Of a stretch of DNA of 64,000 nt, positions 52,903 through 57,201 are shown one piece after another. The notes under the pieces are model-generated. The model was given only the letters and a program-made list of their open reading frames with translations. It was not told where the DNA came from and did not search any database. How positions within the stretch are numbered: the stretch's first letter is position 1; every line of letters begins with the position of its first letter. Position numbers and translations under genes: made by a program. This DNA is from Candidatus Eiseniibacteriota bacterium (lineage in GTDB: Bacteria > Eisenbacteria > RBG-16-71-46): contig OY970342.1 of assembly GCA_963717505.1 (NCBI GenBank), positions 128,001 through 192,000 of the forward strand, written 5' to 3'.

Positions 52903-53355
52903 CTACCTGTGCATTGCGAAAATGAACTTCCAGTCCGGAGTGTCCCCGAGCCCGTACTTGGCTTCGAATGCCATGTTCGGGTTGATGTGGATTCCGCCGA
53001 TGAGTGCCCCTCCGAATTCCCAGTCGCCATCGCCGCCTTCAAAGTCGTACCAGGGGAACGACAGGCCGGCACCGATATAGGGCCTGAGGTCGGAGCTGGT
53101 CTTGAGGACGTAGTGCGCATCCAGGTTCGGAATGATCATGAAGACGTTGTCACCCCAGCCGAAGTCGATGCTCGGCACGAGGTCCATCTCTTCGCCCAAC
53201 GGGCGGGCGTTGTAGTGAAACCCAACCAGGAAGGCATCGGGGTCGATCGCCCATCCGATCTGGAGTCCGGCGCCTGTGATGCCACCGGCATGGGCGGGAA
53301 CGGCGGCAGTAGTCAGGACCACCGCAAGGATCATGAACGGCAGGGTGCGGCGCAT
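52903..53355 (-). CDS. Small outer-membrane beta-barrel protein
   Basis: AAGGAG RBS, signal peptide AHA, LRPYIGAG, FEAKY strands. Confidence 0.75.
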   Translation of the reverse strand: MRRTLPFMILAVVLTTAAVPAHAGGITGAGLQIGWAIDPDAFLVGFHYNARPLGEEMDLVPSIDFGWGDNVFMIIPNLDAHYVLKTSSDLRPYIGAGLSFPWYDFEGGDGDWEFGGALIGGIHINPNMAFEAKYGLGDTPDWKFIFAMHR

Positions 53356-53797
53356 GGCGCTCCTTTCGACAAGTGGGGAACCAATGGGTCGTGGTCGGGG
53401 AGTGGTAGCGCTTGCCGCCCGTGGAGTCAAACATCCTTTCGGCTGGCTCACCCCCCGGCCCCCCACGGGCCCGCCCGAGCGGCCCCTCCGCACCCCTCCA
53501 CCTGCGGGATGCGCCGGATTCGCCAAACTCGACGTCACCTCCCGCACCGCCGCACGGCCCTCGCTTTCCTTCACTGCCCCTCTGGCGGGAGCCGACAGCC
53601 CGAACTTTGGTCGACATGCCAGGAACGCCCGCTCCCGCCGCGGGCGGCAGGCAACGGGTCAGACCATATGGAACGACCGGCTCGCGATCGTAAGGTCGTG
53701 CTTCTCGCGAGAGAAGACGACGGTGGCGGGGATGCCGCCACGCTCGATCGCGGGTTAGCGCTTGCGGCGCCAGAGCCGCATACGAAAGGAGCCGGTC

Positions 53798-54923
53798 GTG
53801 AGCTCGAACGCTATCACCTGGGTGGGGCTGGACGCACACAAGAACTCGATCCACGTCGCGATGCTGGTCCCGGGGCGGGAGGAGCCCCTGTGCTGGCAGG
53901 AAGCCAATGAGGAGACGGCGGTTCGGCGTCTGGCGCGACGGCTGACCCGCGAGGCGCCCGGTGAGGTGCGTGCCTGCTACGAGGCGGGCCCCCTGGGCTA
54001 TGCCCTCCAGCGGGCGCTCGAGGCCCAGCAGGTGATCTGCGAGGTGGTGGCGCCCTCGCTGATCCCGATCAAGCCCGGGGAACGGATCAAGACCGACTGG
54101 CGGGATGCGACGCAAGCTGGCCGAGCTGCTGCGCTCGGGGATGCTGACCGCTGTGCAACCTCCCAATGAGGCCGATGAGGCGTTGCGCGACTTGTGCCGC
54201 GGGCGCGACAGCGTGCGGCAGGACCTGATGCGGGCACGGCACCGCATGAGCAAGTTCCTGTTGCGCCGTGGCTATCGCTATCGCGACACCCAGCGTCACT
54301 GGGGTGTGCGACACATGAAGTGGCTACGGCCGCTCGGGTTCGAGCATGCCTCCGCCCAGGCGATCTTCGATCACTACCTGCTGACGATCGATCACCTCGA
54401 TGAGCGGTTGCGGCAGGTCGACGCCCACCTCGAGGCGTTCGGAGGACAGGAGCCCTATCGCCAGCCGGTGGCTTGGCTGCGCTGCTTCCGCGGCATTGAC
54501 ACGGTGACGGCGGTGAGTCTCGTCGCTGAGCTTCATGACTTCCGTCGCTTCCGATCGGCGCGTGCGTTGATGGCCTATCTGGGGTTGGTGCCCAGTGAAC
54601 ACTCCAGCGGTGAGCAACGCCGTCAGGGCAGCATCACGCGTGCGGGCAACCGCCACGTACGACGACTGCTGGTCGAGGCTGCGTGGCATCACCGCCATCG
54701 GCCCGTGCTCAGCCAGCCGCTACGCAAGCGTCGCGAGGGGCAACCCGCGCAGATCATCGCCATTGCGGATCGCGCGCAGGAGCGACTCCACGGGCGCTTC
54801 GTGCGCATGACCCGGCGTGGCATCCACTACAACAAGGTCGTCGTCGCCATGGCTCGCGAGCTCGTGGGCTACCTGTGGGCGACGCTTTATCCGCATGAGG
54901 TCGAGGCCCCACCCTCGACCTGA
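53798..54923 (+). pseudogene. IS110 transposase/recombinase with +1 frameshift at about 54110
   Basis: AAGGAG RBS plus GTG; GLDAHK, CYEAGP, KTDWRDA (DEDD); after removing A54110 continues RKLAELL...GID..TA..LVAE...F.SA..LMAYLGLVP.EHSSGE...GN..VRRLLVEAA...VVAMAREL. Confidence 0.9.
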
Positions 54924-54974
54924 ACGCTTGCGCAGCACGGAGAGAATCAGGAAGAAGGTCGGCACGATCCGAGG

Positions 54975-55190
54975 GCCGCGCGACTGCACTATGCGGTGAG
55001 CTAGCAGCATCGCCTGAATCCGCGATCTCAGACAGCGTGCCCTCTCGACGGAACACGGTCATGCGGCTCGGCCCGGGACGCCGGCGCAACCCGCGGATAC
55101 TAGAGTGACTCGTCGTCGAAGCGACCGGCCTTCTTCTTGATCCACTCCGAAGCGGGAACAAACCAAACGGGCCACCCGCTGGGGTGGCCG
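54975..55190 (+). ncRNA. Predicted bridge/seek RNA in IS right end (boundaries approximate)
   Basis: Two parallel hairpins with internal loops (guide-ATGCGG...CCGC-guide) matching the reconstructed target and donor; ends in hairpin GGCCACCC-N4-GGGTGGCC (55170-55189). Confidence 0.7.
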
Positions 55191-55230
55191 TAAGGGACGA
55201 AACTGTGCCTTGACCTAGGGTCGTTCCATA

Positions 55231-57201
55231 CTAGTGAAGCAGCGTCACACGCTGCGTCGCCGACCCGGATTCGGCACGTGCATGGATGAAGTACAGCCCA
55301 CTCGGCAAGCGGTGGCTGTCAAACGTGACCTCATGGGAGCCCGAACCGAGCGGATCGTCCAGGAGCAGCGCCACGCGGTGCCCCGAGACGTCGTACACGC
55401 CAATCGAGACGTGTTGTGGGCGGTCCAGCGACACGATGACTCGCCATGCCCCCACGCCGGGGTTCGCGGTCGCCAGCGCGAGAGAGAGCCGCGGCAGCGA
55501 CGGCGGCAGGACCGACGTCACCCCGACCACAAACGAACCCTGACTCGGCGGGCTTCCGCTGAAGGCGTTGTCCACGGCCCTTACGGTCCAGCCATAGTGG
55601 CCCGTCGGTAATCCGTGAATCGTCCACAGCGTGTTGCGGCTCACGTTGCCGGGCTGCGGGATGAGTCCCGCGACCGCCTCCGCAGACCCGCTCAATCCGG
55701 GCCGCGGCGCCCCCCCGCCGGTGAGTTGCAGCTCGTAGCTGAGCGACGCGGCAGGAGTGCCATCGTCGTTCGACGCGTTCCACGAGAGCATCACCGCGTC
55801 CGCTCCAACGCTTGCCTGGAGGTTGGTCGGGGCGCTGGGCGCCGCATTGTGGCCAGGAGCGTCATTGCGAAACAGTTGCGCGCGAGACTCGATCAGGCCG
55901 TTCCCGCCGGGTACGTAGTATCCGCCGGCCACGAAGTAGTCGAGATCGCCGTCGCCGTCGATGTCGAACCAGGTGAAGGCGCCGCCCGTGTTGCCGAAGT
56001 TGGGCGCTGGAAGGGACTCGCCGGCCAGCGTGAAGACGCCGCCCTCATTCGCATAGACTTCCGAACGGCCGACGATCTCACCATCCCCGAGTTGCTGGCC
56101 GGTGATGAGAAGATCGATGTCGCCATCCGAGTCGTAGTCCGCCCATGTCACGCCCTCGAAATCGAGCCACGGCTCCGTGGGGCTCTGGAACTCGTGGACG
56201 ACATCCACCGGCGTCCACCCGCCCGGGTTCCTGAAAAGAATACGCACTACCGTCTCGCCCGTCTCGTCGGGGCGCACGAGATTGCCGCCCACGACGATGT
56301 CGAAGTCTCCGTCACCGTCGGCATCGCCCAGGTCGGCGGTACCGTATGAGATCACCGCCAGCGCGGAATCCACACGCGCCAGTGTCCCGGAGTCGTTCCG
56401 GTACAGGTCGACCGTGGGAGGCTCGAACTGGCCCATGGTGGCCAACATCAGGTCGAGGTCGCCGTCCCCGTCCATATCGGCCCAGGCGGTGGCTGCGGTA
56501 GTGGCCACCGGCAGCGGCTGTCCCGTGTCCGTGAACGTCCACGCATCGCCGGTCGCCGGACCGTCGTTGCGCAACACCATGGCCGGCAGTCCCTCGAATT
56601 CGCCCGACACGCATGGCAACATCAGGTCGAGATCGCCGTCGTTGTCCACGTCCGCCCAGGTCATGCTGCGCTGATCCATGGTGAGGAAATCGGACTCCTC
56701 CTGGTACGCCGGGAGCACCGTGGACGTGCGCAAAAGCGTACCCGCGTCATTCCGATAGAGGGTCGTCGACCCCTCCCCGCCCACGACGGCGTCCGGATCG
56801 CCGTCGCCGTCATAGTCGCCCCACGCCAGGTCACCAGCGCCAAAGAACAGATCGGTGGCATCCACAGACACGGGTGTGAACGCCCACGAGCCCCCAGGCA
56901 CCGGGCCGTCGTTGCGGTAGAGCGTCAGAAGGTGTTCCACGGACCCGAAGTAGACGACGTAGTACCCGGCGACCAGGAGATCCAGATCGCCGTCCGCGTC
57001 CACATCCGCGGGTGCAACGCTGGCGATCCAGAAGTCGGTGTTCGGGCCGGTGTTGAACAGCGTGTCAGTGAGTGAGAGTTCGGTGAATTCGCCCTGGGCG
57101 CGCACGGGTCCCGGAGCGATGGCACTCGCGAGGAGCGCGAGCGCCGCGCAGACGGTGAGCCTGGCTGCGCGAGTGCGTGGTGGCGTAAATGTGGGGGCCA
57201 T
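55231..57201 (-). CDS. Secreted FG-GAP/VCBS repeat protein with FN3-like and T9SS-like CTD
   Basis: Repeated W(A/G)DxDxDGDxD and YRND motifs; APSAPTNL..WNAS FN3 segment; VYDVSGHRV...SGLYFI. Confidence 0.88.
   Translation of the reverse strand: MAPTFTPPRTRAARLTVCAALALLASAIAPGPVRAQGEFTELSLTDTLFNTGPNTDFWIASVAPADVDADGDLDLLVAGYYVVYFGSVEHLLTLYRNDGPVPGGSWAFTPVSVDATDLFFGAGDLAWGDYDGDGDPDAVVGGEGSTTLYRNDAGTLLRTSTVLPAYQEESDFLTMDQRSMTWADVDNDGDLDLMLPCVSGEFEGLPAMVLRNDGPATGDAWTFTDTGQPLPVATTAATAWADMDGDGDLDLMLATMGQFEPPTVDLYRNDSGTLARVDSALAVISYGTADLGDADGDGDFDIVVGGNLVRPDETGETVVRILFRNPGGWTPVDVVHEFQSPTEPWLDFEGVTWADYDSDGDIDLLITGQQLGDGEIVGRSEVYANEGGVFTLAGESLPAPNFGNTGGAFTWFDIDGDGDLDYFVAGGYYVPGGNGLIESRAQLFRNDAPGHNAAPSAPTNLQASVGADAVMLSWNASNDDGTPAASLSYELQLTGGGAPRPGLSGSAEAVAGLIPQPGNVSRNTLWTIHGLPTGHYGWTVRAVDNAFSGSPPSQGSFVVGVTSVLPPSLPRLSLALATANPGVGAWRVIVSLDRPQHVSIGVYDVSGHRVALLLDDPLGSGSHEVTFDSHRLPSGLYFIHARAESGSATQRVTLLH

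Follow-up and report, generated by a model that had tools for sequence, protein, structure and literature searches.

A candidate bridge (seek) RNA in the right end of an IS1111-type insertion sequence, and covariation of its loops with flanks and ends among relatives

The described systems closest to the locus considered here are the insertion sequences of the IS1111 group and IS621. In the parts of the literature on which we draw, the bridge RNAs of IS1111 elements lie in the right end (PMC11208160) and are predicted in 93.0% of the IS1111 elements in ISfinder (Durrant et al. 2024, PMC11208160), so that a bridge RNA in an element of this type is to be expected and is no surprise. The sections used here of the account of IS1111 seekRNAs (PMC11187229) place the segment complementary to the transposase-sense strand on the 5' side, give transposase lengths of 330-350 aa, name subterminal inverted repeats of 7-17 bp and a C-terminal motif GL-P----S(T)G as marks of the group, and describe only target matches for the short seekRNA. 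The donor loop of IS621 has been shown by experiment, according to the portion of PMC11208160 drawn on.

We analysed a window of 64,000 nucleotides (the whole stretch of DNA presented, in whose coordinates all positions are given) that contains one element of this type, together with related elements from other genomes and metagenomes. Comparison of the sequences makes it very probable that the right end of the element encodes an IS1111-type bridge (seek) RNA, in which a first hairpin would bind the target and a second the donor.

Ends, gene and state of the insertion sequence

An element of the IS1111 type, within the IS110 family, occupies window positions 53661-55234. Homology to its relatives starts at the A of an AG at 53661 and stops at, or just before, a second AG at 55233-34 that is common to element and target. 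A search with the right flank for the empty site in 31 genomes (the host and 30 relatives) returned only paralogue-like matches of 67-69% identity that fall short of the 3' end of the gene; the uninterrupted site thus not having been recovered, the bounds of the element rest on where homology to relatives ends. The left flank GGGTC (53656-53660, + strand) finishes in TC, the left half of the target that the 3' side of the target loop would read. The non-coding left end (53661-53797, + strand, 137 nt) starts AG-AC-CAT and then enters the subterminal inverted repeat TATGGAACGACC (53667-78), while the non-coding right end (54924-55234, 311 nt) finishes at 55210-55234 (+ strand) with TTGACC (55210-15), the repeat GGTCGTTCCATA (55219-30), the tail CT (55231-32) and the AG (55233-34). 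The two repeats are 12 bp long and 100% identical, and are set back from the left and right ends by 6 bp and 4 bp respectively. Across the family the ends take the form left flank-[CT/TC]-AG AC nnn ATGGAACGACC ... GGTCGTTCCATA-[CT/TC]-A[G/C/T]-right flank. Two loci among the relatives have pieces of an element as flanks: to the left of L118 stands the right end of another copy (..GGTCGTTCCATATCT) followed by AGAC, and the right flank of L119 (1843-1880) is a fragment of the hairpin 2 region. Both loci, L118 (230-260) and L119, are cases of tandem or nested insertion.

The TTGACC at 55210-15 is conserved in almost all relatives and could be the first hexamer of a circle junction promoter; such promoters, at the junction of the circular form, are reported for ISEc11 and ISEc21. 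Inspection by eye found no convincing second hexamer across the circle junction here, and a scan of linear positions 53500-55400 found no promoter-like site. On the minus strand, a G+C-rich hairpin followed by a T-run (55170-55189) resembles a terminator facing transcripts that arrive from the interrupted gene. Many relatives have a strong hairpin, of differing sequence, at the equivalent position, with a T-run in 26/84 by a crude rule.

The gene for the IS110-family DEDD/Tnp transposase (53798-54923, + strand) is divided between an N-terminal part (53798-54166) and a C-terminal part (54105-54923) in different frames, and alignment with four relatives identifies a single extra A at 54110 as what shifts the frame; the relatives encode one unbroken transposase of 372-374 aa that is 83-96% identical to the C-terminal part. 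Both Pfam domains, PF01548 and PF02371, are present, the C-terminal part scores 175 bits against NCBIfam NF033542 ('IS110 family RNA-guided transposase'), the translation of 54105-54923 contains the motif GLVPSEHSSG, and the context of the DEDD residues is visible in the translations. The first-pass annotation spoke of a new programmable recombinase, which overstates the case for this copy, the gene being frameshifted and the family already having a name in NF033542.

The host genome is a single contig of 4.16 Mb, 86.68% complete, and searches of it found neither a second copy of the element, its protein or hairpin 2 nor extra orphan copies of the RNA; the sole other IS110-like match in it is a 404-aa open frame (G000:C1:2691648-2691890) with 35% identity over 82 residues. 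Given a frameshifted transposase, two mismatches between guide and site (below) and a genome without a second copy, this copy is probably inactive. Alone among 81 loci, it also has a base following the 5' target guide (A54991) that is at odds with its own 3' guide, which together with the frameshift suggests decay. To the left of the element, an open frame on the minus strand (52903-53574) has by eye the appearance of a small outer-membrane beta-barrel protein: its start resembles a signal peptide and its hydrophobic residues alternate.

Structure of the right-end RNA domain

The predicted bridge (seek) RNA domain spans 54944-55142 on the + strand and is closed by a 20-bp stem pairing 54944-63 with 55123-42, which does not figure in the first-pass annotation. 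Within it lie hairpin 1 (54971-55046, + strand), whose putative target-binding loop carries a 5' guide UGCACUA (54985-91) and a 3' guide UCAG (55028-31), and hairpin 2 (55047-55114, + strand), whose putative donor-binding loop carries a 5' side GGUCA (55057-61) and a 3' guide AUACUAG (55097-103). The description of these as two structurally parallel hairpins is borne out by their common layout, xxxxAUGCGG...CCGCG...AGA, and the words picked out in them were correctly located: CACT at 54987-90, CCGC at 55020-23 and TCAG at 55028-31 in the first, GGTC at 55057-60, CCGC at 55091-94 and ATACTAG at 55097-103 in the second.

Relatives were fetched with the C-terminal part of the protein, giving two sets of 80 loci, one from species-representative genomes and one from metagenomes; most of them show conservation of the non-coding end, hairpin 2 being its best conserved part. 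The consensus fold of 64 distinct sequences contains 57 pairs, 26 of which show changes on both sides; such changes occur at 14/18 pairs in helix 1, and the 5/5 pairs of helix 8 are invariant. Standard pairs fill 96.4% of the cells, compared with 38-48% after displacement of the 3' partners by 1-3 columns, a control that is somewhat favourable to the structure because the structure was predicted from the same alignment. No shuffle of 500 equalled the observed value on any of five structure measures, and the fold of the 213-nt domain has a z-score of -3.36. Pairs of G with U are frequent on the + strand (pair 22/197, for example, is UA in 27 sequences, UG in 21 and CG in 15), as would suit an RNA with the same sense as the transposase gene.

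In the consensus fold each of the four guide segments is an unpaired strand of an internal loop, with sides at 54982-91 and 55025-34 for the target and at 55057-61 and 55096-104 for the donor; guide segments folded as paired stems would have counted against a bridge RNA, and the outcome is in its favour. The minimum-free-energy fold of the window copy recovers the closing stem and hairpin 2 but pairs part of the 5' guide of hairpin 1 otherwise.

A permissive Rfam scan of 53400-55500 gave four hits at chance level (E 1.1-6.8), none over the hairpins. Contigs from four RNA-library runs overlap the region at 80% likeness; contigs of this kind cannot show transcription, strand or ends. In one estuary run 28/30 bins are covered, with the top summed depth at 55039-55144, the sequences being mostly <90% alike and the depth reflecting conservation. 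One RNA-library contig of 122 nt starts at 55021, right after 19 letters that we take to be sequencing adapter.

Loops, flanks and ends among relatives

Joining the flanks gives a target that reads GGGTC-AG-TGAAG on the top strand, and circularising the element gives a donor junction ATACT-AG-ACCAT, both as reconstructed in the first-pass annotation. Its caution that the short matches alone could be chance was well placed: the longest word that the non-coding end has in common with the joined target is 6 nt, a length reached by 461/500 shuffles, and that in common with the donor junction is 8 nt, reached by 21/500. The weight of the argument is carried by covariation among the relatives, from which loop strands and junctions were extracted with regular expressions, yielding 81 loci with hairpin 1, 57 of them with a right junction and 65 with a left end.

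In the target loop, the 5' guide, taken as the 7 nt before A/G-UGCGG, was scored against the reverse complement of the right-junction dinucleotide plus five flank bases. The mean over the 57 loci is 5.63/7 (7/7 in 14 loci, 6/7 in 16, 5/7 in 22, 4/7 in 2 and 3/7 in 3), as against a mean of 4.05/7 and a maximum of 4.53 when guides and flanks are paired at random, none of 10,000 shuffles reaching the observed value; the related sequences are not independent, so that this and the other shuffle counts overstate significance. Guide changes with site in natural variation, the only kind of change available here, which provides 37 distinct 5' guide 7-mers among the 81 loci together with their matching sites. 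Position 1 of the seven is mostly a constant C and matches in 26/57 loci, leaving a variable guide of 6 nt. Immediately 3' of these seven comes a base (54991 in the window) that varies with the final left-flank base, A accompanying T in 42 loci and G accompanying C in 19, with three exceptions, and the 5' guide thus comes to 7 nt again, covering four right-flank bases, the core and one left-flank base. On the 3' strand, the dinucleotide before AG equals the last two bases of the left flank in 57/63 loci (0/10,000 shuffles), the agreement extending to such rare states as TT (three loci) and AT (one); the third base back matches in 23/63 only. The two strands together read an 8-bp site, on the evidence of these comparisons, composed of two left, two core and four right bases. 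The visible match had been put at about 6 nt; a read-out of about 8 bp by overlapping guides of 7 and 4 nt replaces that figure. In the window the 5' guide UGCACUA matches TTCACTG at 5/7, with mismatches at G54986 and A54991, and the 3' guide UCAG matches TCAG at 4/4. Neither form of the 8-bp site is unique in the host genome, where the 8-mer specified by the guides occurs 20 times and that of the actual site 15 times.

In the donor loop, the two variable bases of the 3' strand, ATAxxAG, are the two bases that follow CCATA at the right end in 63/63 loci. The states of this tail are TC in 48 loci, CT in 14 and GC in 1, and a signal carried by three states implies few independent switches. After the AG of the loop (A55104 in the window) the 94 loci show C 55 times, A 31 times and T 8 times, although AGAC is kept at the left end. 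The reported match of ATACTAG to the donor, as right-end tail plus core, stands; its extension to an eighth base, A55104, lacks conservation among relatives. The 5' strand has a near-invariant GUC able to pair with G-A-C at the left end; the preceding base is G in elements whose left end goes on with C, and A in those going on with A or T, a proper pair forming only with T and an A-A mismatch with a left end ACA. No tracking of the three variable left-end bases by the 5' donor strand was found across relatives. With GUC and one partly tracking base, the left-end half of the donor guide is only partly supported, and so is the earlier equation of GGTC with the left donor. At positions resembling a handshake (the two bases after the donor-loop AG against the first two right-flank bases) there was no signal, the first base matching in 31/63 loci, a value that 3581/10,000 shuffles reach.

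The limits of the donor signal leave room for an alternative that we regard as unlikely, namely that only hairpin 1 guides, as in a short seekRNA, and that hairpin 2 is a protein-binding scaffold, the ends being recognised through the subterminal repeats. The ATAxxAG match would then have been inherited along with the end and not selected as a guide. Such a role would suit the most conserved part of the non-coding end, several of whose helices are invariant (helix 8 at 5/5), as it would a 5' strand that does not track the variable left-end bases, a tail with only three states, and the short seekRNA, for which the text consulted of PMC11187229 describes target matches only. It sits less well with the agreement of loop and right-end tail in 63/63 loci and with the presence of the CT state among close relatives (83-93% identical) as well as remoter ones (61-72%), suggesting that the switch happened more than once; moreover, the loop of hairpin 2 has the same geometry as that of hairpin 1, and IS621 provides an experimentally shown donor loop (PMC11208160, in the part used).

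That the region acts as DNA, whether through transposase-binding sites or through single-stranded guides like those of IS200/IS605, with no RNA made, we consider highly unlikely. Such a reading would agree with RNA-library contigs from which no transcript is shown and with the scan of 53500-55400 that found no promoter-like site, but many G-U pairs are kept on the + strand, which on the other strand would be A-C, non-standard in duplex DNA, and the protein family is one shown to use RNA. Least probable of all is that the words match by chance and the hairpins are a generic structured 3' region or a terminator of the transposase gene, since the target match, within chance for the single sequence (461/500 shuffles), belongs to loops that covary with flanks and ends across relatives, and no T-run follows the hairpins on the + strand.

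The bridge RNA reading, which was also that of the first-pass annotation, is thus supported by the covariation of the loops with flanks and ends across relatives, homologues at different sites having different loop bases where identical ones would have spoken against it. From this covariation and from the placement of the guides we infer transcription, protein binding and recombination of the following kind. The right non-coding end would yield, from reading of the + strand, a bridge RNA (seekRNA) some 200 nt long that bears two internal loops. The 5' strand of the target loop would pair with the transposase-sense strand over four right-flank bases, the core and one left-flank base, and the 3' strand with the other strand across the core and two left-flank bases, both together reading an 8-bp site, here TC-AG-TGAA. 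The 3' strand of the donor loop (AUACUAG, that is, right-end tail plus core) would pair with the complementary strand of the circle junction, and the 5' strand (GGUC), weakly, with the G-ACC of the left end. Recombinase seated on each loop would then, on the model of IS621 and ISEc11, join target and donor and exchange strands beside the core.

Core dinucleotide, target genes and known systems

The left junction is AG in all but one readable locus (the exception being GC), and the right junctions, all 63 read, comprise AG 38, AC 19, AT 4, AA 1 and TA 1. The A of the core is therefore conserved except in the single TA right junction, and the second base goes with the target and the corresponding guide: in 37/52 loci the 5' guide ends in two bases that are the reverse complement of the right junction. 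By these counts a target may depart from the donor in one of the two core bases, and as the sequences stand the left junction appears to retain the donor dinucleotide and the right junction that of the target. Read in the orientation opposite to the transposase, the core becomes CT, and mismatched cores put the crossover just after it, which agrees with the cleavage position in IS621, whose structures have the top strands cut between T9 and position 10 (PMC11208158, in the part drawn on). The question of one-strand or two-strand exchange is raised by a 2025 preprint, as far as its covered portion goes (10.1101/2025.10.25.684509), and the position of the crossover alone does not distinguish between the two. 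At one locus, L004 (3115-3130), the right junction CTAG-AG-CGTG has one AG more than the guide predicts. The dinucleotides of donor tail and target are swapped in 45/53 loci (TC with CT in 34, CT with TC in 11), identical in 4/53 and otherwise combined in 4; avoidance of cross-reading between the loops is a possible cause of the swap, and shared descent another.

The gene entered in the window is on the minus strand (55231-57201) and encodes a 656-aa FG-GAP repeat protein (FG-GAP_3, 104.6 bits) with a C-terminus like a secretion tail, which scores 21 bits against Por_Secre_tail, under the cut-off of 27. Its present stop codon TAG (55231-33) is made of the element tail CT plus A, read on the minus strand; the joined flanks would give TGA at the same place, so that the insertion, which falls right at the stop codon, leaves the protein unchanged. 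Read on the opposite strand, the right flanks of the relatives likewise encode the last residues of proteins with tails like ...GVYFxRL...TRKLVVLR that end at the junction, and the three bases after CCATA form a stop codon on the opposite strand in 100/110 right ends (TGA 84, TAG 16). Ten such tails of 110 aa were compared with domain models: six match FlgD_ig, Por_Secre_tail or both at E < 0.01, four of these above the curated cut-off, and the other four have no match. Of 9069 long open frames in the host genome, 88 have such a tail by a crude pattern, and the target is thus a repeated one, as with other IS1111 elements.

A distant clade was read from nine copies in one genome (L047-L060, L072) with a transposase 51-52% identical to that of the window; the copies are 99-100% alike, one of them at 86%, and their ends were defined by copy-to-copy comparison. 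They adjoin palindromic hairpin repeats (CCCGGTGCGTCAGCGCCGGG-like) and not gene tails, and these repeats look like a REP-like target. The 5' guide of the clade, CGGGCUA, matches its site at 7/7 in 7/9 copies and at 6/7 in 2/9, and the divergent copy has a guide GGGGCUA at a GGGGCTA site; two of the nine copies have identical flanks and may represent one site. Opposite the 3' guide UGUAG most copies have AATAG, which leaves one mismatch; in a single copy the agreement is exact. The clade thereby lends the reading of the target loop support that is independent of the main family.

Taking these features together, we offer as a tentative reading, one that we lean slightly against when its four parts are required jointly, that the main clade runs a gene-sparing, relaxed-core version of bridge recombination. 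Its 8-bp site may be read by overlapping guides, and only one core base may be invariant while the other is free in the target and set by the guide. Insertion may fall exactly at the stop codon of secretion-tail genes (FlgD-Ig / type IX sorting domain), with a new stop furnished in place by the tail of the element, CTA or TCA on the element strand, and the right-end hairpin with its T-run terminating the host gene. Lastly, the swap of CT and TC between donor tail and target may keep the loops from cross-reading DNA.

Bridge and seek RNAs are under development as programmable recombination tools, and the rules for the IS1111 group rest on few elements. The family described here is a natural data set of about 60 elements with 37 distinct guides, each with its own site, that gives direct access to the guide register, to how far the guides overlap on the core and to the tolerance shown at one core base. 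The useful additions here are the guide rules drawn from natural variation and, as the fresh element, the habit of inserting at the stop codons of secretion-tail genes, a large family whose frame is preserved and which, as a class of target, was not seen in the literature covered; the kind of RNA is itself known, and the window, with one decayed copy of a mobile element, is an ordinary result.

The likeness is closest to the IS1111 elements with seekRNAs, ISEc11, ISPa11, ISKpn4 and ISPst6, which also have subterminal inverted repeats (Siddiquee et al. 2024, PMC11187229, in the sections used). In common with them the element has a long non-coding region downstream of tnp with the same order of guides, the GL-P----SG motif, and insertion without duplication at a repeated, conserved target. 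It differs in that the transposase measures 374 aa (372-374 in intact relatives), outside the described range of 330-350 aa, membership of the group being assigned from the end features and the motif; in that the hosts of the relatives are uncultured soil and sediment bacteria; and in that insertion is aimed at secretion-tail genes, at their stop codon and last codons, or in the distant clade at palindromic repeats. With IS621, as presented in the portions drawn on of PMC11208160 and PMC11208158, it has in common two internal loops with putative left and right guides overlapping on a 2-nt core, and when it is read opposite to the transposase the core is likewise CT and the 5' loop strands carry the left arm, as LTG and LDG do in IS621. 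Unlike that of IS621, the RNA lies in the right end and is thus inverted relative to the recombination geometry; the guides are shorter, reading an 8-bp site as against 11-14; the first base of the target core varies (CT, GT, AT, TT) while the donor keeps CT; and the handshake-like positions gave no covariation. The transposase itself is only distantly like those of IS621 (E 1.3e-6) and ISCro4 (E 3.7e-7). A further likeness, by description, is to ISPpu9/Ssr9 of Pseudomonas putida, in which, according to the part consulted of PMC12288879, an IS110-family element lies in repeated palindromic sequences and a small RNA gene lies downstream of the transposase gene.
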